Origin: Candidatus Lokiarchaeum ossiferum | GTDB lineage: Archaea; Asgardarchaeota; Lokiarchaeia; Sigyniarchaeales; Promethearchaeaceae | DNA length: 32,000 bases | Assembly: GCA_025839675.1 (NCBI GenBank) | Contig: CP104013.1 | Location: 840,001 to 872,000, forward strand | Direction: 5' to 3' | In this document: piece by piece, positions 2,820 through 31,656 of the stretch | Numbering within the stretch: the first letter of the stretch is position 1 | Layout of the letters: every line of letters begins with the position of its first letter | Notes under the pieces: generated by a model | Databases searched by the model: none | Seen by the model: only the letters and a program-made list of their open reading frames with translations | What the model was told of the DNA's origin: nothing | Made by a program: the position numbers and the translations under genes

Positions 2820-3200
2820 ACTTTCTTTTATATATTTGACTTCTTAAAAAAAGATTCAATAGAGAATGAAGTCTATCTAAAAGATTTTAAATATTGAAAA
2901 TGTAATTTCAATTTCTAATCCATCTTTTGAAACGATTAAATTTATTCAATGTTGCCCCAAGTTTAATTAGGGTAATTTTTTATTACTTTGAAGAGTCATC
3001 TGCTAGATTTAAAAGTTTAATTGAGTTACTATAGTATAACAATATCATCAAAACAATTGATCACATTCCAGTTATATAAAATAATCTTGCGACGTTGATT
3101 TCTTTTTACATAAGTTACTGATGATATATAGTTGGGTATATATTTAGCAAAAAATGTCATAATTGTATTTAGACATTTTTTTTAAGGAAAAGTGATTAAA

Positions 3201-10279: not shown

Positions 10280-10372
10280 CTATAATCCTCCAATGAAAAT
10301 TTGAATATTTTTACTTTCTGTTTTAGAATTTTTAGAAAACAATCTCACTACCCTCTAATTTTTCACGATTTT

Positions 10373-14432: not shown

Positions 14433-16439
14433 TTAGAGGAACAACTTTCCATCAGAATATATCTCACTAACAGTGACTATATTTTTTAAATCATCGTATT
14501 GATAAAGAATTATTAAATCCCCATGCTCTATATGGGATACAATACCTTTTAAGACCGCTTGAGATATATACCAAGGATCAGCTTTGATTTTGCACTCGGG
14601 ATAGTTTGTACATCGATGAAAAATTTTTCGAGTGGTGACAATTTTGCTCATTTCGGCCTCACAGGAACTGCAAATTACTTTCAATTGTCCTCGATCTTGC
14701 TCCCAACGATTCATTATTTCTTTAAGTAAATCTTGTTTTTCTTCATTTGTAATTTTAATTTGAGCTTCTTCATGGATTGAAATGTCAATATTCTCCAGAT
14801 CTGCAAGATTCTGAAGATCTTCTTCTGCTTTATTTGGGATAATTTCTTCAGTGCGCTTTTTCTGTCGTTTAAATAATCGAAACCTATGGCGTTTTTTTTC
14901 AAGTTTCTTTTGAATTTCTTTTTCCAATTCTTCTTCAATTTCTTTTTGGATTGCATTTTCCCGATCTTCTCGATTCGTTTCTGTTTCTTTAAAAGCATGG
15001 CATTGAAAGACTTGTTCCATTTGTTCAGAATTTAAATTAAGAGGACAATTATCTATATGGGTGCAAATCCCACAAATTGAAATATCAGATGGAACTATCG
15101 AAGATTTATATGAAGTTGTAGAAAAATTCATGTTTTCATATAAATCACAATCAAAAATAGTTTCCATTTGAGATGAATCTACACCTTTTGGACAATCCAT
15201 CATATGTGTACAGGAGAAACACCATGGCATCCCATCATCAGGGGGTGTTTTTAAGCCTATTTTTTCCTGAGTTGACAGAGCTTTAGCGGTTTTTGCAGGT
15301 AACCCGGTGAGATCATAATCTCGAGACATCATATCTAGAACATCCATATTGGACAAATCTTGATTATCCAGCTGTGAAAGATCCATGGTGAGATCAAGAT
15401 CTTCTTCATCCAAGCCATATAATGAATCGTGGAGTTTCTGCAACTTGAAATTATAAAATTGAAAGAATTCAGTCGAATAAGTCGACTGATTAATTTTTAT
15501 TAAGTCAGGAGTACCATTTGGAGTAGTGATGCGCAATTTTCGATATAAATCTTCGAAAAACAATTCTTCATTCAAAGCAGATTCAAAAGAAAACTCAGAA
15601 GGCATTTTTTCACATTTGTGATCTCTTAAAGAATGAATTACTTGCAAGCAATAGGGACATAAGACTTTTGAGGAAACAAAATTCTTCAGAGTGTCCTTTT
15701 TAGCCTTTTCAAGGATTTCCTTTTCGAATTTTTCAAAACGGGATTTCTTGTGGGATGGAGTGGAATAATTTTTCTCCATTCGAGCTTTTTCTAATGAAGG
15801 CCCTTCCATCTCCATCATACGATCATAATAAGTGAAAAATAACAACCGATAAGCCGCAGTATTCAATTTATAAAGATCCACATTCTTTGAAGAACTCCAA
15901 GCATCAAGCTTTTTATAGAGAAATATGAAGAAATCGTTCGTGCATATTTTTTCTTGAAAATGGAAATCGGGAGATAACTCCTCGGGAAGGGAAGCACAAA
16001 CATGTTCAGATAAACTCGGAACACCTTCATAACAATATGGGCAGATCTGTTTTATAAAAATAGAAGGAGGAACTGATGAATTACGAGTAACAGAACTAGT
16101 TTCAGTTTTAGCAGGATTTTTGATAATCGGATCTGTAATTTTAAAAGAAGTTTCAATAGAAGCATCTATTTCTTTTTGATATGCCCGAAGAAATGCAATT
16201 TGGTACTTCACAGGATGAAGTTTATAAATATCAAAAGTTCCTTGATCTGATAATGCATCAGATTCTTTATATATATGCTTGAAAAATGAAGCATCATCGA
16301 TTTTTTTGGAAAACTGAAAATTTGGAGGAAGATCAAGGCATTGGTGCCCATAAAGAGAAAGAAAAGATTTAAAGCAAAAGGGACAAATTTGACGGTATTT
16401 TTTTAATTTTGATTCTTTTGACTCTTCATTTTTATCCAT
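14433..16439 (-). CDS. Cys-rich repeat protein, shorter paralog (3 CCHC modules, 2 four-Cys modules, topoisomerase-type Zn ribbon)
   Basis: 668-aa ORF with the same module order as the 1273-aa neighbour. It also has a Glu/Lys-rich segment before the terminal Zn ribbon and an identical-style C-terminus. Confidence 0.8.
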   Translation of the reverse strand: MDKNEESKESKLKKYRQICPFCFKSFLSLYGHQCLDLPPNFQFSKKIDDASFFKHIYKESDALSDQGTFDIYKLHPVKYQIAFLRAYQKEIDASIETSFKITDPIIKNPAKTETSSVTRNSSVPPSIFIKQICPYCYEGVPSLSEHVCASLPEELSPDFHFQEKICTNDFFIFLYKKLDAWSSSKNVDLYKLNTAAYRLLFFTYYDRMMEMEGPSLEKARMEKNYSTPSHKKSRFEKFEKEILEKAKKDTLKNFVSSKVLCPYCLQVIHSLRDHKCEKMPSEFSFESALNEELFFEDLYRKLRITTPNGTPDLIKINQSTYSTEFFQFYNFKLQKLHDSLYGLDEEDLDLTMDLSQLDNQDLSNMDVLDMMSRDYDLTGLPAKTAKALSTQEKIGLKTPPDDGMPWCFSCTHMMDCPKGVDSSQMETIFDCDLYENMNFSTTSYKSSIVPSDISICGICTHIDNCPLNLNSEQMEQVFQCHAFKETETNREDRENAIQKEIEEELEKEIQKKLEKKRHRFRLFKRQKKRTEEIIPNKAEEDLQNLADLENIDISIHEEAQIKITNEEKQDLLKEIMNRWEQDRGQLKVICSSCEAEMSKIVTTRKIFHRCTNYPECKIKADPWYISQAVLKGIVSHIEHGDLIILYQYDDLKNIVTVSEIYSDGKLFL
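14592..14672 (-). other. C4 zinc ribbon resembling the topoisomerase-type Zn finger
   Basis: CSSCEAEMSKIVTTRKIFHRCTNYPEC. Confidence 0.6.
15000..15230 (-). repeat. two type-B four-Cys modules
   Basis: GMPWCFSCTHMMDCPKGVDSSQMETIFDC and ISICGICTHIDNCPLNLNSEQMEQVFQC. Confidence 0.75.
15450..16385 (-). repeat. three tandem type-A CCHC modules
   Basis: QICPFCFKSFLSLYGHQC, QICPYCYEGVPSLSEHVC and VLCPYCLQVIHSLRDHKC, each followed by the (L/M)P-x-F-x-F and FF-x2-(I/L)Y segment. Confidence 0.8.
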
Positions 16440-17811: not shown

Positions 17812-18549
17812 TTATAATCGCATCGAATAAGGAATTAGGGCCCGTCGCATTATTTTACTATAAGAATAAAGCACAGAACGCATAGATTTTACAAGACTAA
17901 GGATTAATTCTCCTTTAATGCTAGTATAATAGTATTTCAACAAAATCATGTCTGCTTTGTGATCATGTTCCTTAAGGTTTGTATTTATGATGGTTTTTAT
18001 CTCGGATAACCGTTCTTCCCTAATATCTTCATCAATCAAATCTATTTTATGGAGAAATACATTAAATTGAGCTTTTGGTGCAACCAATGATTTCGAGTTT
18101 AATGCTTCTATTAGATCTTCCAAAATTTGATCCTTAAATTTATCAAACTGACTGATATCCATTACAAAGATGATAGAATCAGATTCACCAAAAGCTTGCT
18201 CTTGATCTAACCCAAGCCAACGTTCTATTTCTTGACCCGCAGAATCTGCAACCCCTGCTGAAACATCCAACCAATTATAGGTATAATTTTCAATTCCTCG
18301 AGTTGGTTCCAAAGGATCATCAATCAAGGTTTGTGGACTTGAGTCTTCGAAAAACACACTCCGTATAGTAGATTTTCCTGCTGCGGGGGGACCAATGAAC
18401 AATATTCGCCTGATCGATTCATCTTCATTTGCAATTCCGAGCATTCGCATTAAAAAAGCATCGGTAGGCTCCCCTTCTTCCTTATTGGCATCAATTAATT
18501 CAGCCACTTTTTTCGAGACTTCAATTGAGACCTTTTCTTCTTCTGTCAT
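17812..18549 (-). CDS. Rag/Gtr1-family small GTPase with about 45-aa N-terminal extension
   Basis: 245-aa ORF with G1 GPPAAGKST, G3 DSAGQE and G4 LHKID (HKxD is the Rag/Gtr1 variant of NKxD). Blocks GKSTIRSVFF, FLHKIDLIDEDIRE and YYTSIKGELILSLVKSMRSVL parallel RagA GKTSMRSIIF, LVHKMDLVQEDQRD and [21 protein letters not shown] (recalled from memory). Confidence 0.7.
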   Translation of the reverse strand: MTEEEKVSIEVSKKVAELIDANKEEGEPTDAFLMRMLGIANEDESIRRILFIGPPAAGKSTIRSVFFEDSSPQTLIDDPLEPTRGIENYTYNWLDVSAGVADSAGQEIERWLGLDQEQAFGESDSIIFVMDISQFDKFKDQILEDLIEALNSKSLVAPKAQFNVFLHKIDLIDEDIREERLSEIKTIINTNLKEHDHKADMILLKYYYTSIKGELILSLVKSMRSVLYSYSKIMRRALIPYSMRL

Positions 18550-19498: not shown

Positions 19499-20264
19499 TT
19501 ACCGTAGGAGATTCATTCCTGGTTCTATGCCCGTCGGAGCGACTTTCGACACTTTCATCATTGCGACACTAGAAATTAAAACGATCATCACATTATCATT
19601 TCCAGCAATTTCGTGCGTTGTTGCATCAAGCAACACAAAAAATCGCACAATTTCACCAGCATCTAAAATAGTGTTGGAGTGTACTTCATCATAGAATGCC
19701 ATGCCATATGTATTATTTATGGCTGCACTATTCCAAAAATACGCTTCATCATTTAGAGCAGAATTATATGATAATCTTGACTCATTTAGCGAACCAATGA
19801 ACACAGAAACTTCAATGGCAGATTCTGACAGATCAACTTCACCCGTACCTAAGACTAAACGCATATTCCATACAAGCCCTTCGAGTTTACTATTTCCATC
19901 AGCGTCGTAACCTACGACGAGTCCGCCCTCTACTATCATGAATTTTTCCACAGATTTATTTTTGTGTGTGAATAAAATTTTGCATGGCAGATGAAGCTTG
20001 CTGCAGTGCCTGTTGCCCCGTTGCACTGAGTTGTTGTTGTAATGTTGATCCCATAGTGAGGATTACAAATGCAACTCCAGCTGCAGTGATTATAAAGGCA
20101 ATCAAGATGATTGCGGCGGTCATCCCTTCATTTGCTTTTCGACCTTTTTTGGTACGGCGACGTCTGATCCGGGCGTTGGTTGCTTTATCGGCATTAATCT
20201 TGCGGATTTCCTGACGAGAATCGCAAGAACTTGATTGCAATTTGCTGCTCATAACAGATTTCAC
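19499..20264 (-). pseudogene. arlB: archaellin (ArlB/FlaB) split by a +1 frame change
   Basis: ORF 19956..20264 encodes the leader plus the archaellin N-terminal helix, TAAIILIAFIITAAGVAFVILTMGSTLQQQLSATGQQALQQASSAMQ. ORF 19499..20026, offset by one nucleotide, continues with the archaellin-type beta-rich body, MIVEGGLVVGYDADGNSKLEGLVWNMRLVLGTGEVDLSESAIEVSV. The frames meet at minus-strand CACACACAAAAATAAA (19955..19970). The likely start is ATG 20252, preceded by AGGTGA. Confidence 0.7.
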
Positions 20265-20402: not shown

Positions 20403-22184
20403 TTAGAGAATTGCAACACCAAAACCACCAATCAACTCACCAGCTACTTGACTGATCACAATAATCTCTAAACCCGCAATAATATAATATTGAGACAAGT
20501 ATTTGGTAACTTTCATCCAAGTACCTCGTTGAGGAATAATTATGGCCAGACAAGCGTAAATTGGCATAGTTAAATAATAGATGGTGAAATACAAATCAGT
20601 AAAAAATGCAGGAGGTGGTTTACCTAACTGTAAATTCATCCCTTGGACATCTTGCAGAGCACCCATTGTGACATTCAATAGGAAAAGAACATCTTTCATA
20701 AAGATCATAATCCCAATATTAATAATAGTGAGCATCAGTAAAGTCCCTTTGAAGACCCCAATTACCTGCTGCCTATCCCGACGGAGCTTCAATATTTTTT
20801 CAACATTGGTTGAGATAAATTTGGATATTATTTCGGTATTACCTCCTATATCTAAACTAGAAGTAAAAATTCGAAGAAAACGATCAATAATACTGCTGGA
20901 TGTGCTATCAGAAAACCATTGCCACGCAATAATCGGATCAATCCCAAATTTTGATTGGGTGTATAATAATTTAATATCAGTAGTCAAAGGACCAAATTGT
21001 TCCCGAGAGATGATGTTAACAGAATCAAAAATGCTTCCTCCTAATAATGCTGTTGTAGCGCCCAAAGTGCGAATAAAAACGGGGAAATTAGCATCCCGTC
21101 GTTTTATAATATCTTCAAATTTTTCAGCAACATAACCAGGATAAAACATGGAGATTCCAAATATGATCATGAAAACTGGGAGAGAGATCACAGAATTACC
21201 GTCAGCATCTTTTAGAAAGAAAGTAATGAATGCCAAAATTGGCATGAAAACAAAAACACAGATTAAAAAGGAATAAAGAACTTTTTCGTACTCAGCGGTT
21301 TTCCTTTGAATATTCACCAAACCATCTTTGGGGGAGATCGCATAAAAGGCAACCATAAGAGCAATATAAACAAGTTCTATTACCCCCAAAATGAGAAATA
21401 AATTCCGAGTATTGGCAGCTTCATCACTTCCAAAAAGAAACATCATCAAAAGAAAGGTAATAGATATAAAACTCAATGAAGTGGAAAGTGCGGTAAACAT
21501 ATCGTTAAGTACCTCAAGGGATTTCAACTTGCGAGTATAATCCGAAATATAACCGTTTAAAACCGATTGCTGTTCTTTTAAGAAATAATCTTCTAAATTT
21601 TCACCCGCATCCAAAGCTTGGGAAAAACGGGAGAGAAAATCACCAAATCTGGAACTTGCTGTCGTAGCACTTACTTTTTTAATGCTATCTAAATATCCAA
21701 GATTCCACTCTTTCGCCATGGTACGAATTCGTTTTACCTCTAAAGCAATTAGTCCAAAAGATTTTTCCCGACGACTTACATTCTCAAAAAGTTGATCTCG
21801 ACTAGCTTTTGAGGTAGAAATACCACCCATATAGGTAACAAGCATAGGAAGAGCAGTATCAATTTGTTCTTGACGTAAAGAGCGTTTAAAATAGGGAAAG
21901 ATAAAAACTATAATGAATCCAAGAAAAAAACATGAAATTGATAAAGGAAAAATTATCCCAGAAATCATAGGGCTCATTTCCAATAAAATTCCGATGATTA
22001 TTCCGGACCCTAGACCACCCACTGTAATAGGGAGAAGAATTTTAAATAAATATTCACCTATGGATTTCTGTATTCCTGCTTGGATTAGTGTTTGTTGGAA
22101 CGAATCAACAAGTTTCCGATAAACATCTTGCATTGTTTCTTTGAAACTTTGTTTTTTATTCTCTTCGTCTCGTTTTTCCATCAT
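20403..22184 (-). CDS. arlJ: archaellum membrane platform protein ArlJ (FlaJ)
   Basis: 593-aa polytopic membrane protein with two TadC/GspF-like halves. The size and the position directly after arlI are typical of FlaJ. Confidence 0.8.
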   Translation of the reverse strand: MMEKRDEENKKQSFKETMQDVYRKLVDSFQQTLIQAGIQKSIGEYLFKILLPITVGGLGSGIIIGILLEMSPMISGIIFPLSISCFFLGFIIVFIFPYFKRSLRQEQIDTALPMLVTYMGGISTSKASRDQLFENVSRREKSFGLIALEVKRIRTMAKEWNLGYLDSIKKVSATTASSRFGDFLSRFSQALDAGENLEDYFLKEQQSVLNGYISDYTRKLKSLEVLNDMFTALSTSLSFISITFLLMMFLFGSDEAANTRNLFLILGVIELVYIALMVAFYAISPKDGLVNIQRKTAEYEKVLYSFLICVFVFMPILAFITFFLKDADGNSVISLPVFMIIFGISMFYPGYVAEKFEDIIKRRDANFPVFIRTLGATTALLGGSIFDSVNIISREQFGPLTTDIKLLYTQSKFGIDPIIAWQWFSDSTSSSIIDRFLRIFTSSLDIGGNTEIISKFISTNVEKILKLRRDRQQVIGVFKGTLLMLTIINIGIMIFMKDVLFLLNVTMGALQDVQGMNLQLGKPPPAFFTDLYFTIYYLTMPIYACLAIIIPQRGTWMKVTKYLSQYYIIAGLEIIVISQVAGELIGGFGVAIL

Positions 22185-22220
22185 ATATCAGTTTGATTTG
22201 GTTATTTGACCATGATTAAC

Positions 22221-24008
22221 TTAGAGTGCGGCATCGTCTTCTTCCTTCATACGCCGTTTCATTGTATCTACTACTTCTTGAGGTAATTTCTTTTTGTTTT
22301 TATAAGTGGTTAATATTCGAAAGATAGTATGGTAATTTTGAATTCCAAGTTCTCCAAACGCTTCTAGGATATGTCGTTTCGTGCGTAATTCGTCATAGAG
22401 CATTTTAATATCTTTTCGTTTTATTCCCCGTTTGACTGCGATTTTTTGTTCAAATACATAGGATTGATTTCTAAATATATGAGTATCATCCCCTGCATCC
22501 CATGCAAAAAGCTCAACATACCTAAATTTATCTTTTTTTGGAAGATAATCAACTAATTCATTGCAAGAAATGCAACGACGTAATAATTTTCCCGTTTTTC
22601 CTTGAACTGCCATTTGTATATAGACAAGATCAAGTAAAGCAATAAATGCAGGAGGGACATTAATAGGCTTCCCAGTCATACGATTCACAAATGCTCGTAC
22701 ACTACCAGCGTGGAAAGTAGCAACCATCGGGTGACCAGTTTGCATTGCTTGAAAAGCCATGTTTCCTTCTTCACCACGAATTTCTCCAATAATTATTAAA
22801 TTTGGACGTTGTCTGAGAGCTGCCTTTACAAGAAGAAAAATATCCACGGGATTTCCAGCTGAAGCAGGACGGGTGACTTCTCGAGTCCAATTTTGGTGAG
22901 GCACTTTTACTTCTGGAGTATCTTCAATACTTACGATTTTTGCATTAGGTCCAATAAAAGTGAGTAAGGCATTCAAAGAGGTCGTTTTTCCAGATGCAGT
23001 TTCACCAACAACCATCATAGAATGATGAGATTCCAGGGTCATCCATAAATATGCACATAATTGGGAACTAAGAGTGCCCCATCCAATAAGATTGACTACA
23101 CTGATAACATCTTCACTAAACTTACGGATTGTGAAATTTGATCCATGCATGGACACATCTGTTCCATAGACGATATTAATACGAGAGCCATCGGGTAAAG
23201 CAGCATCAACCACAGGATTGGAGTGGCTCGCAGGACGTCCAGAACGTTCGCTAAGATATAGGGCAAACAAATCAAGTTCTTCATCCGTTTCAAATATAAT
23301 GGTACTTTCAAGAGATTCAAAGATTTTATGTTCTACAAAGAGTGGACCTTTCCCATTACAAGTTATATCTTCAATATATGGATCATTAATTAGTGGTTGG
23401 AGTTTTCCTAAACCAATCTTATTACGAATAAAATAATAACGGACCCGTTCAGCGACGACGGGATCGAGCTTCAATTTGGAACTCTGTTTCAATTTGGACA
23501 GCAATTTCAAAATTGGATTTGAAGAATCTGTTTTTTCATAGGAAGTTCCTGATCCTCCACCACCGATGGAAGTATCAATTATACGAGCAGCAAACTTGTC
23601 ATATAATTTAATATGATCTTCTTTATTCTCTGGAATATCATTGTACTTAATCAAAGAGGTTAAGGTGGACATAATTTTTTCTTGAGCATCTGTAGTAGCT
23701 TGATTTAATGTAGGTTCTATTGAAGAATATAAGATTCTGGAAGGCCCGGGATAAATATGTATAAATACAGGTCCATCTGCAGGGTATAAAACATTGGGAT
23801 ATTCCAATTTTTTATGCTTGCGCTCTAATTTTTCAATATATACAGGCACCCCAATTTCTTCATTGTAGTTCTGAATTAAATAGTCCAGTACATGAGGGTA
23901 TTTGGCAGTAATTTGCCTTAATACAACATTTTGATTAATTTTGGCTTCTGCTTGGGCCATTTCTTGCGTGGACATTGTTTCTGTCATGTTTAATTCAGCA
24001 TTCAACAA
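22221..24008 (-). CDS. arlI: archaellum assembly/motor ATPase ArlI (FlaI)
   Basis: 595 aa. Walker A is VVGETASGKTTSLNALL, followed by VSIEDTPEV, Walker B/Asp box LIIIGEIRGEE and His box ATFHAGS. This is a type II/IV secretion ATPase of the FlaI type. Confidence 0.9.
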   Translation of the reverse strand: MLNAELNMTETMSTQEMAQAEAKINQNVVLRQITAKYPHVLDYLIQNYNEEIGVPVYIEKLERKHKKLEYPNVLYPADGPVFIHIYPGPSRILYSSIEPTLNQATTDAQEKIMSTLTSLIKYNDIPENKEDHIKLYDKFAARIIDTSIGGGGSGTSYEKTDSSNPILKLLSKLKQSSKLKLDPVVAERVRYYFIRNKIGLGKLQPLINDPYIEDITCNGKGPLFVEHKIFESLESTIIFETDEELDLFALYLSERSGRPASHSNPVVDAALPDGSRINIVYGTDVSMHGSNFTIRKFSEDVISVVNLIGWGTLSSQLCAYLWMTLESHHSMMVVGETASGKTTSLNALLTFIGPNAKIVSIEDTPEVKVPHQNWTREVTRPASAGNPVDIFLLVKAALRQRPNLIIIGEIRGEEGNMAFQAMQTGHPMVATFHAGSVRAFVNRMTGKPINVPPAFIALLDLVYIQMAVQGKTGKLLRRCISCNELVDYLPKKDKFRYVELFAWDAGDDTHIFRNQSYVFEQKIAVKRGIKRKDIKMLYDELRTKRHILEAFGELGIQNYHTIFRILTTYKNKKKLPQEVVDTMKRRMKEEDDAAL

Positions 24009-24150
24009 TTCTCATGGAATTCATATTGAAGATGTAGAAATTGTTTCTAACCATCCAAGTAACCCTTTTTACTATATATTTGGGTTTTTAGAAATTTCTT
24101 CACAAAAAAATCAATTTTTTTATCTTAATTGAAAGAAAAAATGAAATAAT

Positions 24151-24912
24151 TTAAGCCGCAGAAATAACTGAAACCGCAATTCCAAAGGCAGAATCAATAT
24201 TAAAGACAATTAATTGAGATATTTCATCTTGTGCTAACCATTTTAAAACTGAACACGCTTTGAAGGCCGTTCCATCTTCTTCTCGCTGTTCAAATCGAAG
24301 AATTAAGTCACATAAATTCATAAAATTTAATTCGATATAGTCATATAACTCGGGGAAGTAAGTTGGAATAGTAATAATGACTGTTTTTCCACCAATGGTT
24401 AATCTTTTACACAATTCAAAGAAAAACATTACTTGTTTAGGATCAAAATTCTTTCCGACAAAATAAGTCAGGGAATCAATAATAATCACTTCGCTTTCAA
24501 TGTTGGATATTAGATCAATTAACTTAAACATTACATCAGGAGTACGTAGAACTTTTCCTGATTGAGACACAACAGGAATAATGTCAAACTGTCCAGTTAA
24601 AAAGAAATCTTCTGCTCTTTCCCAAGATAGAGAGAACATATTTTGCACTAAACCTTTGACTGTCATCTCACTTGTGATATAGGAAACGGTCTTTCTACAT
24701 CGCAAAGCACCATAAGCAATTTGTTGACACCATACAGACTTCCCTGCCCCCATATCCCCAGCAAATACTGCAAGAGATCCACATTTTACTCCACCCCCCA
24801 GATTTCGATCCAATTCTTCATTCGTTGTGAGGAAATATTCGGAGAAATCTTTTTCTGGCCCTTTTTTTTCTTCTTTATCTGCAAATGATTCCATAATTCT
24901 GTTTCCTCGCAT
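24151..24912 (-). CDS. arlH: archaellum KaiC/RecA-like ATP-binding protein ArlH (FlaH)
   Basis: 253 aa with Walker A FAGDMGAGKSVWCQQIAYG and a hydrophobic strand plus Asp (VIIIDSL). It sits between the F/G-like genes and arlI. Confidence 0.85.
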   Translation of the reverse strand: MRGNRIMESFADKEEKKGPEKDFSEYFLTTNEELDRNLGGGVKCGSLAVFAGDMGAGKSVWCQQIAYGALRCRKTVSYITSEMTVKGLVQNMFSLSWERAEDFFLTGQFDIIPVVSQSGKVLRTPDVMFKLIDLISNIESEVIIIDSLTYFVGKNFDPKQVMFFFELCKRLTIGGKTVIITIPTYFPELYDYIELNFMNLCDLILRFEQREEDGTAFKACSVLKWLAQDEISQLIVFNIDSAFGIAVSVISAA

Positions 24913-24927
24913 TAATTCGTAATGATC

Positions 24928-25464
24928 TTATGATAGGGTGTTATAAATAAATGAATCTCCGACCCCATTAGGGGTTGAAATTCGGTAATAATAGTATTGC
25001 TCCGCTATTGTTACATTAAACGTAATTGTGATATTTAAAAGCTCATGAGGATCCCAATAAGTGGGATTGTGGGACAAATCACCTAACATAGTAAACGACC
25101 AATAACATCCAGCACTGATAATTGCAGCACCTAAATTCGAACTGGGAATCCATCTATCATAGACATATGGCCCACAATCAAGAACTTGAGTGACATTTGT
25201 AAAAACATCCATAGAGTCCAATTGATAAATAATTTCTGTTCCAATATTTTCTATCACTAAATTAATAGCCATTTCAGAAGGATCGCGCGAAGCATTAATT
25301 AATTGAATGCTTGTATGGATGCGAGAAAATTCCCGATCGTAATTGTTTTCCTGAGCTTCTGTTATCAATTCATTAGAACTTTGAAAAGCTGAATAAAGCA
25401 TAGATCCCACTAACAGAGTACAAAGAAATAACATTCCAAAGGAAATTGATACTGATTGTCCCAT
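24928..25464 (-). CDS. ArlF/ArlG-family archaellum stator/periplasmic protein
   Basis: 178 aa with an N-terminal hydrophobic helix (ISFGMLFLCTLLVGSMLYSAF) and a beta-rich domain containing LVIENIGTE..MDVF, as in FlaF/FlaG proteins. I cannot tell F from G by eye. Confidence 0.6.
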   Translation of the reverse strand: MGQSVSISFGMLFLCTLLVGSMLYSAFQSSNELITEAQENNYDREFSRIHTSIQLINASRDPSEMAINLVIENIGTEIIYQLDSMDVFTNVTQVLDCGPYVYDRWIPSSNLGAAIISAGCYWSFTMLGDLSHNPTYWDPHELLNITITFNVTIAEQYYYYRISTPNGVGDSFIYNTLS

Positions 25465-25499
25465 TTTTTTTCAAGTTTTTTTTATGTTCAAAGAAAATT

Positions 25500-25979
25500 T
25501 CAAATTGAAAATTGATAAATTTCACTAATTCCTGATATAGCGATAACTATTTGATGAGAACCAGAATTAATTGACTCACCATCAGGAAAATACATGCGAA
25601 CTATAATTGTCTCGAGTGGATCCCAAATATTGTTTCCATTGTCGTTCAAGATAGTTGCATTCCATCGAAAAAGACTTGTGTCCGCACTGTCAAGGTAATA
25701 ATAGTCCCCATCTAAGAAGACATCCATTTCAGAGAAGGACCCCACAGATGCATCCCCAAGATTCTTCACATAACCATATATTGTTGAATTCCCCGCTTCT
25801 GTGTTTCCTATAGCAAGTACTTCAAAATCAGTATTAATTTGATTAGCAAAATTTTGACCGCTGTTGTTAATTGATGCACCTATTGCAGCCGCTACAGTAA
25901 AAGCCGCTGCGATGACAACTATAGTTGTTACAATCGACGCTGTAGACATTATTCCAGTTGATACTGCATTATCACTCAT
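25500..25979 (-). CDS. ArlG/ArlF-family archaellum protein
   Basis: 159 aa with an N-terminal helix IVTTIVVIAAAFTVAAAIGA and then YVKNLGDASVGSFSEMDVFLDG, the FlaG/FlaF-type N-x-G ... D-V-(F/I)-x-D-G block. It is the first gene of the operon. Confidence 0.6.
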   Translation of the reverse strand: MSDNAVSTGIMSTASIVTTIVVIAAAFTVAAAIGASINNSGQNFANQINTDFEVLAIGNTEAGNSTIYGYVKNLGDASVGSFSEMDVFLDGDYYYLDSADTSLFRWNATILNDNGNNIWDPLETIIVRMYFPDGESINSGSHQIVIAISGISEIYQFSI

Positions 25980-26144: not shown

Positions 26145-27554
26145 ATGACAGAAGCAAAAGATTTATTATTAGTTTGGATCGGTCAAGCGGGAGTAAATAT
26201 TGCCGAAAGATTTTGGGCATATGCATATGAAACGCTAGGTATTCCAGTACCAATCAAAACGGGAGATATTCCCGCAGACATTGATAAGATGCTCGATAAG
26301 AAGTTAGAAATGACAGAATTCTATACAGAATACGAAATTGAAGAAGCACGTCGGATGTTCTTCTACAATCTGCTAGATGATAAAGATCGAGCTAGTAATA
26401 AACAAAAAAAATATATCCCGCGATCTATTTTTATTGATTTGGAAGCCCAACCAGTTCGGAGTTTTCATGAACGAAATTCCCATATTTTTCCAAAGGATGA
26501 TTTTATCTACAATACATTCGGATCTCATTCAATGTGGGCACGGGCCAAGCGTATTGGTACCAATTTAAAACCATACATCCTTGATCGAATTCAATCTCTT
26601 ATTCAAATGCGTGCGATTCAAAACTTAGAAGGCATAATAATAATTCATGCAACGGGAGGTGGAGCAGGATCTGGACTTCTTGATAGTGTATTTGAAGTTC
26701 TGCAAGATAAGTTCCCAAAAGTCCCTACCCTCACTTTTTCAATTTTTCCAAGTCGAAAACTCAGTGGAAATGTTATTGAAGCATATAATACAATTTATGC
26801 AGCAAACAGTTTATTAGCAAATGCAAGTGCAACAGTGTTACTTGACAATGATAAAATAATTAATTTGGTAAAAGAAAAATATCAGATTGAATCACCCACT
26901 TATGAAGATATTAATATGATAATCTCTCGGTTAATATTCAGTGTGATTATGCAAATTGCAATGCCTGGTGCCATCATTCGGGCGGATTTCAATAAATTAT
27001 TCACAAATTTAGTACCCTACAAATACATGAAATTTTTGTTAGCAGGTATTGCTCCCTTTAAATTTGATGAATTTTCTCAAAATTCTACAGAAGATCTAGT
27101 GAAAGAGCTCACTGATGAGCAGAATTATATGGCCGATGTAAACTTTGGTACAGGTAAATATGTATCTACCATGTATTTCTTCATGGGAAAACTAGGTCCT
27201 GAAGTGAAAACTCCTCTCCGAATTGCCAAAGAAAATATGGATTTTATGCCATGGATTCCGACTGGTATGTTCATAGGAATTACTCCACGAGAAAAAATGA
27301 CCCTTGATGGGATGCCTCTTTTACGTCAAGGAATTGTTTTAGCAAATAATTCGGCAATGCGGTTTATATTTCAAAGAACTATGGCACAATTTCAAGTGAT
27401 GTTTAATAAAGGTGCATTTATGCACCATTTTAAGAAAGAAAACATAGATGCGGAAAAAGAATTGAAACAAGCCGCAGCCAATATTACACGAATGATGAAA
27501 TTTTATGAGATTGCAGAAAAATCTACAACTAAAAAACGAACTGTTAAATCCTAA
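26145..27554 (+). CDS. tubulin-family GTPase (bona fide tubulin-like, not FtsZ/CetZ-like)
   Basis: 469 aa. Block-by-block correspondence to eukaryotic tubulin:
- VWIGQAGVNIAERFW / IQAGQCGNQIGAKFW
- KYIPRSIFIDLEAQP / KYVPRAILVDLEPGT
- HATGGGAGSGLL / HSLGGGTGSGMG (T4 signature)
- VIEAYNTIY...VLLDNDKI / VVEPYNATL...CIDNEAL
- FTNLVPYKYMKFLLAGIAPF / [20 protein letters not shown]
- FMPWIPTG / FVEWIPNN
- NNSAMRFIFQRTMAQFQVMFNKGAFMHHF / [30 protein letters not shown]. Confidence 0.9.
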   Translation: MTEAKDLLLVWIGQAGVNIAERFWAYAYETLGIPVPIKTGDIPADIDKMLDKKLEMTEFYTEYEIEEARRMFFYNLLDDKDRASNKQKKYIPRSIFIDLEAQPVRSFHERNSHIFPKDDFIYNTFGSHSMWARAKRIGTNLKPYILDRIQSLIQMRAIQNLEGIIIIHATGGGAGSGLLDSVFEVLQDKFPKVPTLTFSIFPSRKLSGNVIEAYNTIYAANSLLANASATVLLDNDKIINLVKEKYQIESPTYEDINMIISRLIFSVIMQIAMPGAIIRADFNKLFTNLVPYKYMKFLLAGIAPFKFDEFSQNSTEDLVKELTDEQNYMADVNFGTGKYVSTMYFFMGKLGPEVKTPLRIAKENMDFMPWIPTGMFIGITPREKMTLDGMPLLRQGIVLANNSAMRFIFQRTMAQFQVMFNKGAFMHHFKKENIDAEKELKQAAANITRMMKFYEIAEKSTTKKRTVKS

Positions 27555-27582: not shown

Positions 27583-28473
27583 CTAAACATTGTTTAATTT
27601 CAGAACTCCATTAGAAATCGCTTTTTTTTCTATATGATTAACAACATTGAAATATATTGTGATTTCATTCTCATTAACGATTTTTTTTAATACTTGAAGT
27701 TTAATTTCGGTTCCTGGAAGTACCATACCGGTAAATTGGCAATATATTTCCTTAACATTTGAAGGATTCCCTCCAGATTCTCGGTTGATAATAGAACTTA
27801 CAGCTATAGCCAGAGTAGCAGTCCCCTGTAAAATATTACCGGGTAATTTAACAGAATGTGCAAATTTTGGAGAAGTATGAATTGGGAAGACTATATTTGT
27901 ACATCCATCGTAGACATAGGGAAGACATAGATCAATGAATATATCTTCAACCCATTCAGGTTTTCCTTGCCATTTGTTATCCAAATAGGACGGCATAGTG
28001 GGAAGGTTACTAATCTCTGCCCCTTCTGGAGAACATTTCACACCTCGCAACATAATGCCTGTGTATTCGGTAAACACTCTATATCCTTTTCTGTCGGTGG
28101 CTTTAAATTCTCCAATAAAATGACTTCCCGCACGATGAGGTTTTATCGCTGCAATCTGCCCTTCGATCTGTAGACGATCCTTGGGTTTAATCAACCTATG
28201 GACAATAATATGTTCTGAATAATGAACCCCACGGGCTAAAAAATGTTGAGGAAAGTTTTGATCGATGATAAATTCAGAAATATTTTCAATTATTGGCCAA
28301 TTTACAACAACTGGAAAGAGTGGATGAGCTACGAGCCCACCCTTTTGTTCATCATCGAAATAATAAGGATTGGAATCTTTTATTGATGCAGCATAATTTG
28401 TGGTTTGTCGCCAAGTTACTCGCGTTTTATATGGTTTAAGGATAGTTCCAACATATTTTAAATCGAGTTCCAT
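27583..28473 (-). CDS. MaoC-like (R)-hydratase/dehydratase, double hotdog fold
   Basis: 296 aa. The N-terminal half, WRQTTNYAASIKDSNPYYFDD...VAHPLFPVV, resembles MaoC_dehydrat_N. The C-terminal half, with FPIHTSPKFAHSVKLPGNILQG, resembles the MaoC dehydratase hotdog (HxxxxxA...G-x-I-x-x-G). Confidence 0.55.
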   Translation of the reverse strand: MELDLKYVGTILKPYKTRVTWRQTTNYAASIKDSNPYYFDDEQKGGLVAHPLFPVVVNWPIIENISEFIIDQNFPQHFLARGVHYSEHIIVHRLIKPKDRLQIEGQIAAIKPHRAGSHFIGEFKATDRKGYRVFTEYTGIMLRGVKCSPEGAEISNLPTMPSYLDNKWQGKPEWVEDIFIDLCLPYVYDGCTNIVFPIHTSPKFAHSVKLPGNILQGTATLAIAVSSIINRESGGNPSNVKEIYCQFTGMVLPGTEIKLQVLKKIVNENEITIYFNVVNHIEKKAISNGVLKLNNV

Positions 28474-28763: not shown

Positions 28764-29531
28764 GTGAATCATATGTCTGTACAAATCGAGGATATTTCTA
28801 ATACCTATATTATGACAAAATCAGAAACTTTGTTTAAGATTTTGCAAGCGTTGAGCTTTAAGGGTGGTAGTTCAAGCACATCTTCATTAAAAATTGCTGT
28901 AATGCTGGATGATAACATTATCGCCGCAGCTTTGAAGGGTGGAGAACTTTTAAAATTCATTGAAAAAGATGAAGATGAATACGCCCTCACAGCTGAAGGT
29001 GAACGAATTTTAGAAGTCAGTAAAAAAGAACAACAAGATATGGTGGCTAAAAGCTATTATGCTATTGAGGGCTATCGAGATATTGTTTTTCGCATGAAAA
29101 TGGCAAGCAATCAGATGCAAATGAAAGAACTTGAAAAAGCATTCTATATATTGGAAAAAGATATGCGTGATGAACTAAGAAAAGTAATTGTTGATAGTTT
29201 TATAGATTTTGGTCTTTATGCAAATGTTTTAGAAACTAATAATAATGCAGCCAATCCAGGAGTTTTATTAACCGCTAATGGAGTTTCGCAATTAGATGCA
29301 GTATTAGCAGCGAAAAAACGCAAACGTAAGGGAGGTACTGCCCCCACAGCAGCCAGTTCTGGTGGAGGCATTGTAAGTGATTTATCTTGTCAATCTTGTG
29401 GAAAAGCGATTATGCCAGACTTTGCCATGTGCCCCTATTGCGGTACTGCGTTAAAACGTTCCTGTAGCAATTGCGGTAAGGAATTACAACCAGGCTGGAA
29501 AATGTGTCCCTTCTGTGGAACCGGACAATAA
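28764..29531 (+). CDS. winged-helix-like protein with C-terminal double zinc ribbon
   Basis: 255 aa with GTG 28764 or ATG 28773 as start. The C-terminus CQSCGKAIMPDFAMCPYCGTALKRSCSNCGKELQPGWKMCPFCG gives four CxxC pairs, i.e. two zinc ribbons (DZR-like). The N-terminus LFKILQALSFKGG...LKFIEKDEDEYALTAEGERILE is wHTH-like. A KKRKRKG basic linker joins them. Confidence 0.65.
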   Translation: MNHMSVQIEDISNTYIMTKSETLFKILQALSFKGGSSSTSSLKIAVMLDDNIIAAALKGGELLKFIEKDEDEYALTAEGERILEVSKKEQQDMVAKSYYAIEGYRDIVFRMKMASNQMQMKELEKAFYILEKDMRDELRKVIVDSFIDFGLYANVLETNNNAANPGVLLTANGVSQLDAVLAAKKRKRKGGTAPTAASSGGGIVSDLSCQSCGKAIMPDFAMCPYCGTALKRSCSNCGKELQPGWKMCPFCGTGQ

Positions 29532-29679: not shown

Positions 29680-31656
29680 ATGAGTATTGGCGCAGATGAT
29701 AAAGATGATCTTTTGTTTATCTTCATTGGTCAACGAGGACTTCAAATCGGTAGTATCTTCTTTAATTTAATTAAGGACGATTATAAAGGAAAGCGATATG
29801 ATATTTTGGATTTTTTTTCCAAGGTATTTTTTATTTGTGAAACCGAAAGTCAATTCCGAGAAATTGGAACCATGATAGAAGGATATGTTCCCGAAGAAAA
29901 TGTGCTTTTAATGGGAGAATTAAATACAAGCGGAGATTTATGGTCAAATATTGAAGAAAATGACGATATATTCGCAAGTAGAGTTTTTGCTCCATTAATG
30001 TACGCTGTTGATCAACTCGCAAAGCCAAATATTCTTCTTTTTTATGACCTTTCAAATGGAAAACAAGCAGGAATTTGTGATTATTTATTGATCAATTTTC
30101 CTTTAGTAAAACAACAAATGCCAATCTATGTGATTGCCACAACATCTATCGATGAAGGAGCAGGTGCTTTATCTATTTATTGGAGTATTTTAGGGCTAAA
30201 CTCGATCATTCAAGGATCCACAGCAAAAGCTTGTATTCTATTAGATTATGAAGCAATTGGAAATTCAATTTTTCTAAAACGAATTAAGAAAATGGATGAT
30301 ATTGATTTTGAGAGTTATAACTATGTTGTAGCCCAATTAATTTACTCCATCACATATTATGATAGAGAACCATATTCAAATGCTGTGCCATTTTGTCAAA
30401 TGATTGATAAACTCGTGATTTTCAATGACATGAAATTCATCATTCCCTTCATGACAATGCCTCGTCGTGAATTGATCGAAGATGAAACGTTTTCGGGCTA
30501 TTTAAACGAGTTGGTAAATGATTGCAACCTATTTTCAATGAATTATAAACGCCCCATAGATGAAAATGGCGTTGAACAAGATTATCCTAAAATTAGTCTC
30601 GCTAATGCATTTATTGCCTTTGGGGAAAAACAAGATACACACTATCTAAACTTAATCCGGAATAATTTACCTCCGATCATGGAATATTTGCCTGGCACTA
30701 AAACGTTTTATACATATCCCCGCGGGGACCCTTTCTCCGTTTTTTTAGAGAATAATACAGTTGTTCGTCAATATTTTCAAGACCTTTTGGAGAAATTTGA
30801 TATTCTTATCTCCCATCATTCTTATCTACATGTTCTTGAGGATTTAGGAATCACCGTAGATTCATTTTCGGATGCCTTAGACAAATTGGTCTCAATAGTG
30901 GATGCATACCAAGAAAGTGAGGATCTGCTCTATGATGATGAAGAATTCGATTATGAAGAAGAAATATCCAAGTATGATCAACCTGTTGATGAAGAGGAAG
31001 AACTAAAACGAAAGTATGGAGATACTACAGAAGGCACTTTAGAAGGAGAAATATCTGAGAAAATAAAGGGAATAAGCGACGCAAATGATCCTGAAAATAA
31101 TGAATTTCAAGGAGAAGAAGGAAGCAAACCAGAAATTTCTTCACCAAAAACTGATGCTTCGGAAGATTCAATAAATAAAACACCAAAATTGGATAAAACT
31201 CAAATCATTAGAACAAAAGATGATGAAATCAATGATATTGATAAATTATCACAAAATATTGACGCCAAATCAATTTCAAACTTAAATGAACAAGCAATAA
31301 AACAAAATCCACGAAGATCCCGTCCAACTCGCACTCTGAAATTACAAAAAGCCGATCCAATTTTAGTCTCAAGGGAAGGAGGTCGAATTGTGAAAGAAGA
31401 AAAACCAGATAAAGCGGAAGGAAGCGCTTTAGGTTGGTTAGAAATGCGTGCCAATAAGGAAAAAGAAAAAGTTCAGCAAGAGAAGGCTGAAATCACCAGA
31501 GAACGAGAACGCATTGAACTTGAAAAACGCGAATTTGAAGAAGCACAAGAACTCATTCGGTTAGAAGAAGAGAAGAAAACCCAAGAAGAAACGGAAAAAA
31601 CATTAAAGAAAAAAGAAGAACTGAAAGAATTAGCTAAAATGTTTGAAAATCTATAG
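29680..31656 (+). CDS. divergent tubulin-family paralog with degenerate GTP-binding signature and long acidic/coiled-coil C-terminal extension
   Basis: 658 aa. The tubulin-like core spans about aa 1-410, with these correspondences to eukaryotic tubulin:
- IFIGQRGLQIGSIFF / IQAGQCGNQIGAKFW
- YVPEENVLLMGE / YVPRAILVDLEP
- ILLDYEAIGN / CIDNEALYD
- YNYVVAQLIYSIT / LNHLVSATMSGVT
- ENNTVVRQYFQDLLEKFDILISHHSYLHVL / [30 protein letters not shown]
The T4 position reads DLSNGKQAG instead of GGGTGSG. An acidic stretch (ESEDLLYDDEEFDYEEE) follows, then about 230 aa of low-complexity and K/E-rich heptad sequence. Confidence 0.75.
   Translation: MSIGADDKDDLLFIFIGQRGLQIGSIFFNLIKDDYKGKRYDILDFFSKVFFICETESQFREIGTMIEGYVPEENVLLMGELNTSGDLWSNIEENDDIFASRVFAPLMYAVDQLAKPNILLFYDLSNGKQAGICDYLLINFPLVKQQMPIYVIATTSIDEGAGALSIYWSILGLNSIIQGSTAKACILLDYEAIGNSIFLKRIKKMDDIDFESYNYVVAQLIYSITYYDREPYSNAVPFCQMIDKLVIFNDMKFIIPFMTMPRRELIEDETFSGYLNELVNDCNLFSMNYKRPIDENGVEQDYPKISLANAFIAFGEKQDTHYLNLIRNNLPPIMEYLPGTKTFYTYPRGDPFSVFLENNTVVRQYFQDLLEKFDILISHHSYLHVLEDLGITVDSFSDALDKLVSIVDAYQESEDLLYDDEEFDYEEEISKYDQPVDEEEELKRKYGDTTEGTLEGEISEKIKGISDANDPENNEFQGEEGSKPEISSPKTDASEDSINKTPKLDKTQIIRTKDDEINDIDKLSQNIDAKSISNLNEQAIKQNPRRSRPTRTLKLQKADPILVSREGGRIVKEEKPDKAEGSALGWLEMRANKEKEKVQQEKAEITRERERIELEKREFEEAQELIRLEEEKKTQEETEKTLKKKEELKELAKMFENL

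Follow-up and report, generated by a model that had tools for sequence, protein, structure and literature searches.

AtubC of Candidatus Lokiarchaeum ossiferum: a divergent Asgard tubulin of predicted non-catalytic function in a conserved gene neighbourhood

The stretch of DNA analysed here (the window) comprises 32,000 nucleotides of Candidatus Lokiarchaeum ossiferum, positions 840,001 to 872,000 of contig CP104013.1. It holds a tubulin gene, atubC, together with three neighbours that recur in related genomes:

20403–25979, minus strand: archaellum operon arlG-arlF-arlH-arlI-arlJ, transcribed divergently from atubC
26145–27554, plus strand: atubC coding sequence, 469 amino acids plus stop
28764–29531, plus strand: winged-helix (AAA_assoc_C / HTH_45) and double zinc-ribbon protein
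29680–31656, plus strand: conserved 658-aa 'hypothetical protein' without a Pfam match

The reading frame of atubC extends from ATG to stop at exactly these coordinates and is a real gene. Its product matches Ca. Lokiarchaeum ossiferum UYP44417.1 at 100% identity (established via cluster members), and the gene is located in two closed L. ossiferum chromosomes with archaeal genes around it. In GenBank, UYP44417.1 bears the product name 'Tubulin-like protein CetZ', which is a mislabel (see below). A literature search by accession and locus tag of the gene returned no paper. Nor did the literature searched (papers other than the primary Cell 2025 paper on L. ossiferum) report expression, nucleotide binding or assembly of AtubC.

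Both gene and clade have nevertheless already been described and named. Lowe, Ettema and co-workers (Sci Adv 2026, PMC13394414) introduced AtubC, in the accessible parts of their paper, as a third monophyletic group of Lokiarchaeial tubulins, separate from AtubA (with BtubA) and AtubB (with BtubB), whose genes lie no further than 10 kb from the atubA-atubB tandem, and treated it there by phylogeny and synteny only. We consider the protein encoded at 26145–27554 to be the same entity, as no feature contradicts membership; the label is given by elimination and synteny, our tree containing no labelled sequence from that paper. AtubA, AtubB and AtubB2 of L. ossiferum are encoded by other genes than atubC. 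The AtubB and AtubA genes lie 9.57 kb downstream of atubC in L. ossiferum CP163304.1, so that the tandem pair falls just past the end of the window, and atubAB follow atubC at distances of 3.9, 5.0 and 7.9 kb in Lokiarchaeia L001, L002 and L007, respectively. This synteny is kept down to about 45% AtubC identity.

All relatives of AtubC stem from Promethearchaeota/Lokiarchaeial assemblies. They form a clade of ten members that is monophyletic with 100% bootstrap in a neighbour-joining (NJ) tree, sits on a long branch and counts as one representative among 1.84 billion, scores dropping from 431 bits to about 185 bits beyond it. Which group is sister to this clade varies among NJ bootstraps (Odin in 31%, the AtubA group in 30%, gamma-tubulin in about 11%). 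Our scan of GTDB genomes recovered Btub-type and Heimdall loci and no AtubC; it barely informs on the distribution of the clade, as L. ossiferum itself was missed as well (the region may be masked or absent).

The neighbourhood of atubC is conserved on both sides. Upstream, the arl operon begins 165 bp away and adjoins atubC in six out of six related loci, including L009, which is devoid of the downstream island genes; this divergent archaellum adjacency is new here. A RagA-like GTPase gene beyond the arl operon is likewise syntenic. L009 also carries bacterial-type genes and may be a chimeric contig. Downstream, the winged-helix/zinc-ribbon gene is placed between atubC and the gene for the 658-aa protein in five of six related loci. 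Among solved structures, its product resembled only generic zinc ribbons, and NCBIfam contained no matching family.

Sequence profiles reveal the 658-aa protein as a degenerate protein of the tubulin fold, hidden so far and reported here for the first time. Residues 1 to about 415 correspond to a complete but degenerate tubulin domain, with SNGKQAG as T4 and Gln at the T7 position. After this domain come an acidic stretch (residues 414–470, net charge -17), then a linker that is disordered, and finally a long C-terminal helix that is conserved (residues 583–657). Its AlphaFold model is poor (pLDDT 48), and the Foldseek matches, although all tubulins, have low TM scores; the tubulin homology therefore rests on the sequence profiles. 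Such a protein would be the fifth tubulin-superfamily gene of L. ossiferum, missed by standard domain searches. Neither this neighbour nor the archaellum adjacency is mentioned in the accessible parts of the text and supplement of PMC13394414.

Within AtubC, we located the following elements (all on the plus strand; residue numbers refer to the protein):

26181–26192: T1 loop GQAG (residues 13–16), with G13 and Q14 invariant in the clade
26235–26408: clade-specific H1-S2 loop insertion (residues 31–88), exceeding the loop of every other tubulin class by about 30 aa
26319–26372: conserved helix FYTEYEIEEARRMFFYNL (residues 59–76) inside the H1-S2 insertion
26409–26453: block 1, KYIPRSIFIDLEAQP (residues 89–103), strand S2, aligning to 'PRAxxVDLEP'
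26520–26534: T3 loop GSHSM (residues 126–130)
26655–26675: T4 signature GGGAGSG (residues 171–177), clade-invariant, with Ala in place of the Thr of GGGTGSG
26961–27017: T7 loop and H8 (residues 273–291)
Residues 286–305: block 2, FTNLVPYKYMKFLLAGIAPF, aligning to T7/H8/S7 'TNLVPFPRxHF'
27054–27086: M-loop PFKFDEFSQNS (residues 304–314), 6 of 11 residues invariant
Residues 368–374: block 3, MPWIPTG, aligning to 'WIPTG' ahead of S9
27285–27323: S9-S10 loop (residues 381–393) with a conserved insertion of 5–6 residues
Residues 422–429: block 4, KGAFMHHF, aligning to 'KAFxHWY' after H11
27522–27551: C-terminal tail STTKKRTVKS (residues 460–469), basic here, less conserved across the clade than any other segment

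Based on the four blocks, the earlier note had proposed a tubulin rather than merely a GTPase of the FtsZ/tubulin superfamily, with near-complete conservation of the eukaryotic signatures. The first part holds. All quoted peptides are present, and both HMMER alignments to solved Asgard tubulins and a MAFFT alignment of 32 sequences put the four blocks at homologous tubulin positions, the matches being far beyond chance. The second part was overstated, since block identity to eukaryotic alpha-, beta- and gamma-tubulin representatives amounts to 0.25–0.57 and that of the whole protein to tubulins from beyond the clade to 23–29%.

Domain, profile and structure searches agree that AtubC is a tubulin sensu stricto and neither an FtsZ nor a CetZ. 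Its N-terminal domain matches Pfam Tubulin (PF00091) with 120 bits (cutoff 33; E-value 1.8e-34), its C-terminal domain Tubulin_C (PF03953) with 47 bits (cutoff 26.6; 3e-12), and the best PDB match has an E-value of 7.7e-57 (HMMER). Against 22 tubulins of all classes AtubC scored 103–203 bits, compared with 5.3 bits against E. coli FtsZ, so that the alignment called for in the earlier note places it with the tubulins; the NCBIfam FtsZ and CetZ models gave zero matches at E<=1. The structure superposition that had likewise been suggested leads to the same result: the AtubC model fits alpha/beta-tubulin and BtubA with target-normalised TM scores of 0.88–0.92, includes the outer helices H11 and H12 (residues 405–422 and 436–459), and the top 50 matches of a structural search were all tubulins. 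A CetZ/FtsZ-family protein, for which the GenBank product name would speak, or a eukaryotic contamination is ruled out, with hardly any residual doubt, by these scores, domains and structural matches, by the two closed chromosomes with their archaeal gene context and by the low identity to eukaryotic tubulins.

AtubC is thus a genuine tubulin, yet an unusually divergent one. It is the most divergent among the four L. ossiferum tubulins, scoring about 160–170 bits against eukaryotic beta-tubulin, compared with about 360–380 bits for AtubA and AtubB. Outside the clade, the highest HMMER scores were those of AtubA (203 and 185 bits). Gamma-tubulins came up as the first non-clade matches in a word-indexed search, an artefact of candidate selection, as exhaustive and local searches rank AtubA/B and Btub first. 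Two sequences with high scores in the exhaustive search (P0026 and P0027) were discarded as distant relatives, being eukaryotic gene models of chimeric nature in which tubulin segments are duplicated.

Most residues of the nucleotide pocket are kept in AtubC: GQxG in T1, the glycines of T4, Glu, Tyr and Asn in T5, Asp-Asn in T6, and Tyr and Asn in H7. Within the clade, conservation is highest in the nucleotide loops, in T7/H8 (longitudinal interface) and in the M-loop (lateral interface), and lowest on the outer surface (H11/H12 and tail). In T3, the Asn that senses the gamma-phosphate in the canonical 'GAGNNWA' is Ser in ten out of ten clade members. The Thr-to-Ala exchange in T4 likewise alters a gamma-phosphate-contacting residue. 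The catalytic position of T7 is occupied by Lys284 (26994–26996), also invariant in all ten, as in beta-tubulin and AtubA, whereas alpha-tubulin, AtubB, AtubB2 and OdinTubulin carry the catalytic Glu.

AtubA and eukaryotic beta-tubulin are Lys-type, non-catalytic subunits of an obligate heterodimer. AtubC shares with them the Lys at the T7 position, an intact-looking pocket and the full tubulin fold. On the other hand, it is just 27–29% identical to them, has a shorter M-loop, the ~30-aa H1-S2 and the S9-S10 insertions, Ser in T3 and Ala in T4, and its gene lacks a tandem Glu-type partner. Only ten columns diagnostic for AtubA-like versus AtubB-like sequences were usable, and their split of two versus three is too small a number to show AtubA mimicry. 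Compared with AtubA/B, alpha and most beta-like tubulins, the M-loop is shortened by 3–4 residues, and it equals that of OdinTubulin in length; the S9-S10 insertion occupies the site of the 8-residue insertion of alpha-tubulin.

The charge of the protein is unusual as well. Net charges across the AtubC clade range from -1 to +9 (+5 for this protein), compared with about -13 for AtubA and beta-tubulin; of the 22 further tubulins in the comparison, 20 range from -5 to -22, the exceptions being a beta-like gene model at +11, owing to its Arg/Lys-rich tail, and one other tubulin at 0. The acidity of helix H12 is lost in the clade. The basic C-terminus EKSTTKKRTVKS, which the earlier note took as a sign of a different partner or lattice-surface chemistry, is present in this orthologue and is not a family property: tails of +3/+4 occur in four of the ten members, and two have essentially none. 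The tail not being conserved, the idea survives in a sturdier form, the shift of the whole clade to neutral or positive charge. The accessible text and supplement of PMC13394414 mention neither this charge inversion nor the T7 Lys, GGGAGSG, the T3 Ser or the H1-S2 and S9-S10 insertions.

Taken together, we favour, with moderate confidence, a reading of AtubC as a GTP-binding, hydrolysis-averse structural subunit that is predicted to work with partners encoded in its gene island. According to this proposal, AtubC would bind GTP without triggering hydrolysis in the subunit beneath, would itself probably be a poor substrate for hydrolysis, and would engage in real longitudinal and lateral polymer contacts. 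It is probably a non-catalytic accessory subunit and not a self-sufficient filament former, as judged from the invariant residues of its pocket and interfaces. All partner assignments are inferences. Most likely, AtubC would serve as an alternative beta-like (Lys-type) subunit on the Glu-type AtubB or AtubB2, or dock at the end of an AtubAB lattice. The remodelled lateral elements (the short M-loop and the H1-S2 and S9-S10 insertions) and the inverted charge could then produce a lattice of another kind, or serve to end or stabilise the existing one. The strongly acidic, co-conserved 658-aa protein could be its direct partner.

The origin of microtubules is a question to which Asgard tubulins have become central. 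AtubA and AtubB build mini-microtubules and, like AtubB2, have been structurally characterised; AtubC has so far been named only. Should AtubC turn out to modify the lattice or bind ends as a non-catalytic subunit, the functional specialisation of paralogous tubulins outside an alpha/beta-like pair, as exemplified in eukaryotes by gamma-, delta- and epsilon-tubulins, would predate the eukaryotes. With a cultured organism and an AtubAB system that is already tractable, these ideas are directly testable.

The partner model has to be weighed against the alternative that AtubC is an independent, Odin-like 'proto-tubulin' forming its own homopolymeric filaments or tubules, functionally unrelated to AtubAB. 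OdinTubulin (PDB 7EVB) likewise comes from an Asgard archaeon and belongs to none of the AtubA/AtubB pairs; it has a catalytic Glu and is single-copy and homopolymeric (Akil et al. 2022, PMC8956254). The published maximum-likelihood trees, as far as presented in the accessible parts of PMC13394414, tend to pair AtubC with this homopolymeric tubulin, at low support, and orthology was suggested, which speaks against a partner model, as does the lack of a tandem co-oriented Glu-type partner gene, unlike the situation of AtubA/AtubB. The nearest same-strand tubulin-fold gene is that at 29680–31656, with Gln at T7 and a degenerate pocket. The highly conserved M-loop, of the same shortened length as Odin's, would fit an independent AtubC polymer, too, and Odin is the sister group in 31% of the NJ replicates mentioned above; the AtubA group takes this position equally often. 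Several further points argue against the Odin-like alternative. The scores of AtubC against Odin (143 bits; 182 with a profile) fall below those against AtubA, AtubB and Btub (177–203 bits; 213–246 with profiles), AtubC has at least three co-resident tubulins, and the synteny with AtubAB persists among distant AtubC proteins. Above all, the invariant T7 Lys in place of Odin's Glu would leave an AtubC homopolymer without polymerisation-coupled GTPase, and AtubC therefore most likely works with island partners. We regard an independent polymer as unlikely, while taking it seriously.

Gamma-tubulin acts at the end of the microtubule and not in its lattice. It is without a conserved acidic catalytic residue at T7 (Gly or Glu in the aligned representatives), and an end-binding AtubC might be its functional analogue. 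The relationship is not a specific one, as gamma-tubulin is 24–27% identical to AtubC, shows no specific affinity and is its sister in only about 11% of bootstraps; furthermore, GCP-like partners are not known from archaea. A more specific and rather improbable version of the partner model is that AtubC and the 658-aa protein constitute a dedicated end-binding module (cap, nucleator or anchor) for AtubAB mini-microtubules, perhaps tethering the tubules to the archaellum motor. The two would form a non-hydrolysing stack in which AtubC binds GTP and neither partner has a catalytic T7 residue, the basic AtubC pairing with its strongly acidic neighbour. The latter would contribute a pocket-dead tubulin domain, an acidic E-hook-like stretch and a long coiled-coil-like helix. 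If true, the module would be the functional equivalent, in a prokaryote, of gamma-tubulin complexes or of microtubule-associated proteins; the 658-aa protein is a candidate for the first prokaryotic microtubule-associated factor.

The conserved arl operon raises the question if AtubC could instead scaffold or position the archaellum motor as a cytoskeletal factor, in functional analogy to haloarchaeal CetZ while standing outside that family. CetZ1 influences the placement of the motility machinery in Haloferax, which lends the idea some plausibility. In addition, CetZ2 co-localises with a type-4-filament subsystem of haloarchaea (bioRxiv 10.64898/2026.04.22.720090), and such links of CetZ paralogues to motility and type-4-filament loci parallel the divergent archaellum adjacency of atubC in six of six loci, L009 included. 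Apart from this and the GenBank name, CetZ differs from AtubC, which has a tubulin C-terminal domain, H11/H12 and essentially no FtsZ-type similarity. Nothing points to a physical link with the archaellum, and the possibly chimeric nature of L009 weakens the count. Inheritance without selection may suffice to explain the adjacency, because long-range synteny is kept here anyway, as seen for the RagA-like GTPase. A scaffold function appears improbable to us.

Finally, the winged-helix/zinc-ribbon gene between atubC and the tubulin-like gene in five of six loci, along with the unusually basic character of AtubC for a tubulin, might evoke a TubZ-TubR-like DNA-partitioning module, in which a basic tubulin engages a DNA-bound adaptor. 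We consider this very improbable. A TubR-like identity of the winged-helix protein, which resembles generic zinc ribbons at most and falls into no NCBIfam family, is without support, and the basic tail of AtubC is not conserved. TubZ-type partitioning depends on GTPase-driven treadmilling, which the Lys at the T7 position should prevent.

The open reading frame at 26145-27554 (+) runs from ATG to stop and encodes 469 amino acids. Its product matches UYP44417.1 from Candidatus Lokiarchaeum ossiferum B-35 at every residue (100% identity); another closed genome of L. ossiferum encodes a homologue that differs at three residues. Pfam assigns it a Tubulin/FtsZ GTPase domain at 1.8e-34, and the C-terminal domain that is specific to tubulins at 3e-12. 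Asgard tubulins head its sequence matches in the PDB, with Heimdall AtubB at 7.7e-57, AtubA of L. ossiferum at 4e-56 and AtubB of L. ossiferum at 6e-50; BtubA/B and eukaryotic beta- and alpha-tubulins come next (about 1e-47 to 1e-50). An earlier note, made from the sequence alone, had matched four peptide blocks to tubulin rather than FtsZ, and the scores agree: with filters off, 22 tubulins covering all classes gave 103-203 bits with the protein and E. coli FtsZ gave 5.3, and with the profile of its clade (ten related sequences including this one) the figures were 139-246 versus 3.9 bits. No NCBIfam FtsZ or CetZ model matched at E<=1. The AlphaFold2 model (pLDDT 81.4, pTM 0.87) shows the full tubulin topology with H11 and H12, and its best 50 Foldseek matches in the PDB were all alpha/beta-tubulin or BtubA (target-normalised TM 0.88-0.92). 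The GenBank name "Tubulin-like protein CetZ" is thus a misnomer, and membership of the CetZ/FtsZ families, or contamination, is refuted.

All peptides quoted in the note are present (residues 89-103, 286-305, 368-374 and 422-429, and the C-terminus EKSTTKKRTVKS). According to the alignments of the PDB hits and a 32-sequence alignment, the four blocks occupy homologous tubulin positions, namely S2, T7-H8-S7, the WIPTG turn before S9 and KAFxHWY after H11, which confirms the observation. "Near-complete conservation" was too strong a wording, since block identity to the eukaryotic classes is 0.25-0.57, tubulins outside the clade are only 23-29% identical (418 trimmed columns), and the score to eukaryotic beta-tubulin is about 160-170 bits, compared with about 360-380 for AtubA/AtubB and 225-250 for OdinTubulin and the paralogue AtubB2. 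Judged by these scores, the protein is the most divergent bona fide tubulin of L. ossiferum.

Nine cluster-level relatives share 44-91% identity with it; all are unnamed and come from assemblies of Promethearchaeota/Lokiarchaeial origin. When 1.84 billion representatives were scanned exhaustively with HMMER, the clade as a whole fell on a single representative (431 bits), and the next genuine single-domain matches reached only about 185 bits. The two top non-clade scores (P0026 and P0027) were rejected as distant relatives because they are eukaryotic chimeras, gene models in which tubulin segments are duplicated. A bootstrapped NJ tree recovers the ten sequences as one monophyletic group in 100% of replicates, on a long branch, with OdinTubulin as sister in 31% and the AtubA group in 30%. 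By their scores to 9f6t_B (963 bits) and 9f6t_A (942 bits), the tandem genes 9.57 kb downstream in the L. ossiferum genome CP163304.1 are those of the crystallised AtubB and AtubA, and the same pair lies 3.9-7.9 kb downstream in three other Lokiarchaeia; P0120, which is AtubB2, is a distinct gene. Lowe, Ettema and co-workers define AtubC as a third group of tubulins that is monophyletic, confined to Lokiarchaeia and encoded less than 10 kb from atubAB, its deep position uncertain and leaning toward Odin (PMC13394414). Our protein is almost certainly AtubC, a true tubulin. Public genomes contain the gene, and its clade has a name and a phylogenetic placement; the finding as stated in the note is therefore already known. 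We found no biochemical, structural or motif-level account of AtubC in that paper, and no further paper among those searched names the gene.

Among the ten members of the clade, the following features vary little or not at all:

T1: GQ(A/C/S)G
H1-S2 loop: insertion exceeding that of any other class by about 30 residues, ending in a conserved helix (F/Y)xxxxE(I/M)E(E/D)AR(R/L)x(F/I)FY (residues 59-76, pLDDT about 72-75)
T3: G-S-x-S-x-(W/F/Y)-(A/S)-R-A, with Ser replacing the first Asn of canonical GAGNNWA
T4: GGGAGSG in 10/10, with Ala replacing Thr
T5: Asp gone; Glu, Tyr and Asn retained
T6 and H7: Asp-Asn of T6 and Tyr/Asn of H7 retained
T7, catalytic position: Lys284 in 10/10
M-loop: six of 11 residues invariant

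Lys at the catalytic T7 position is shared with beta-tubulin and AtubA, whereas alpha-tubulin, AtubB, AtubB2, BtubA/B and OdinTubulin carry Glu. Compared with AtubA/B, alpha- and most beta-like tubulins, the M-loop lacks 3-4 residues, and the S9-S10 loop has a conserved insertion of 5-6 residues at the site of the 8-residue insertion of alpha-tubulin. Conservation within the clade is highest in T4 (0.96), H8 (0.94), the H8-S7 turn (0.88), S4 (0.87) and S2 (0.84), followed by the M-loop (0.82), T5 (0.81), T1/H1 (0.80) and T7 (0.77), and lowest in H11/H12 (0.57) and the tail (0.40). The basic tail pointed out in the note is real in this protein (+4) and is no family trait: it is +3/+4 in only four of the ten members, essentially absent in two and zero or negative in three. 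Net charge of the whole protein is -1 to +9 in the clade and -5 to -22 in the 22 other tubulins, save one at 0 and a beta-like gene model with an Arg/Lys-rich tail at +11; the H11-H12 segment is about neutral, versus -5 to -9 in AtubA, alpha, beta and gamma. The conserved charge trait is a global shift.

At the level of the alignment, the nucleotide pocket is largely intact, the catalytic T7 residue is missing, and constraint is strongest on longitudinal (T7/H8, T5, H10-S9) and lateral (M-loop) interface elements. AtubC would accordingly be expected to bind GTP and make genuine polymer contacts, and would probably be unable to activate hydrolysis in the subunit beneath. In yeast beta-tubulin, substituting the signature-motif Thr suppresses the GTPase; together with the Asn-to-Ser change in T3, this suggests that AtubC's own GTP is also poorly hydrolysed. 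A homopolymer would then be GTPase-dead, which favours a structural role alongside partners. AtubC might replace the usual Lys-type subunit on AtubB or AtubB2, or it might dock on an end of the AtubAB lattice and there, through its inverted charge and its altered lateral elements, modify or terminate that lattice. We propose this non-hydrolysing role only tentatively, at somewhat less than an even chance; identity and mechanism judged together are reasonably probable. Such a Lys-type, hydrolysis-averse, charge-inverted AtubC with remodelled lateral elements appears not to have been described before. An independent homopolymer like that of OdinTubulin, whose M-loop length AtubC shares, would face the missing GTPase and is unlikely.

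The neighbourhood of atubC contains:

20403-25979 (-): complete archaellum motor operon arlG-arlF-arlH-arlI-arlJ, directly upstream of atubC and divergent
27583-28473 (-): MaoC-like dehydratase gene, between atubC and the winged-helix gene
28764-29531 (+): winged-helix (AAA_assoc_C / HTH_45) and double zinc-ribbon protein; basic linker KKRKRK
29680-31656 (+): 658-aa "hypothetical protein" (UYP44420.1 / NEF87_000705)

The last of these was matched by tblastn of AtubC against the window. It has no Pfam match even at E<=1 and no NCBIfam match, but its PDB matches include BtubB and beta-tubulins (1e-7 to 1e-6); its family profile aligns with that of AtubC over 389 columns (98.8% probability, E 4.8e-17), and FtsZ scores below zero. 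By these comparisons it is a hidden, highly divergent tubulin-fold protein, with a complete predicted tubulin domain and degenerate GTP-binding motifs. The T1 Gln is not conserved in the family, T4 reads S(N/S)G(K/F/L)(Q/D/T)AG, and the L. ossiferum protein has Gln at the T7 position. The tubulin domain is strongly acidic (-28); after H12 follow a conserved acidic stretch (EDLLYDDEEFDYEEE, -17 over residues 414-470), a variable disordered linker and a conserved C-terminal helix of about 75 residues ending LAKMFENL. A search of 5.8 billion proteins yielded only eight clusters of relatives, all "hypothetical", and every one with a source name or recovered contig is Lokiarchaeial. Wherever context was available, the gene lies downstream of atubC. 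The published survey used PF00091 and COG seeds, one PSI-BLAST iteration and long-branch pruning (PMC13394414), methods that would not have retained this protein, and it appears to be undescribed. That it forms with AtubC an end-binding or anchoring module for mini-microtubules is rather unlikely. The motif-level reading and this hidden neighbour provide concrete, testable hypotheses in a tractable system.

A scaffold associated with the archaellum is a slightly poorer prospect still. The operon is genuine (ArlI, 604 bits versus a 550-bit cutoff) and stands next to atubC in each of the six related loci, and one TFF subsystem of haloarchaea co-localises with CetZ2 (bioRxiv 10.64898/2026.04.22.720090); however, long-range synteny among the relatives weakens the inference, a Gtr1/RagA-family small GTPase (a eukaryote-type signature protein; 17812-18549, -) beyond the operon being syntenic too (in L002 and L006). 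An archaellum machinery had been recorded for L. ossiferum before. Downstream of the operon, at about 19499-20264, are small archaellin-like ORFs. The winged-helix/zinc-ribbon gene stands between atubC and the 658-aa gene in five of six loci, and its product showed no likeness to solved structures beyond zinc ribbons; a TubZ/TubR-like partition module is highly improbable.

The MaoC-like dehydratase gene occupies its site in L. ossiferum loci only, other Lokiarchaeia having small unrelated ORFs or nothing there. Further insertions in the island are a transposase and a methyltransferase in L007 and a gene for 1101 aa with no Pfam match in L. ossiferum. The contig of the AtubC homologue P0006 (L009) carries bacterial-type genes (POTRA/ShlB, MotA/ExbB, ExbD; 9564-13398), lacks the rest of the island and may be a chimeric assembly. 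Elsewhere in the window, very large ORFs at 3192-7460 (+), 10373-14194 (-) and 14433-16439 (-), of 1422, 1273 and 668 aa, have essentially no domain matches; two of the three carry a C-terminal Top1-type zinc ribbon. A coiled-coil and HTH_11 protein with crescentin- and ATG16-like matches is encoded at 9272-10279. Finally, a gammaproteobacterial MAG (L036, 9809-12568) holds two BtubAB-like tubulin genes in tandem, whose products share 35-40% identity with AtubA/AtubB, and at least one BtubAB-like gene is present in a Thiothrix MAG (L035, 10001-11326); bacteria other than Verrucomicrobia therefore have tubulin pairs as well.
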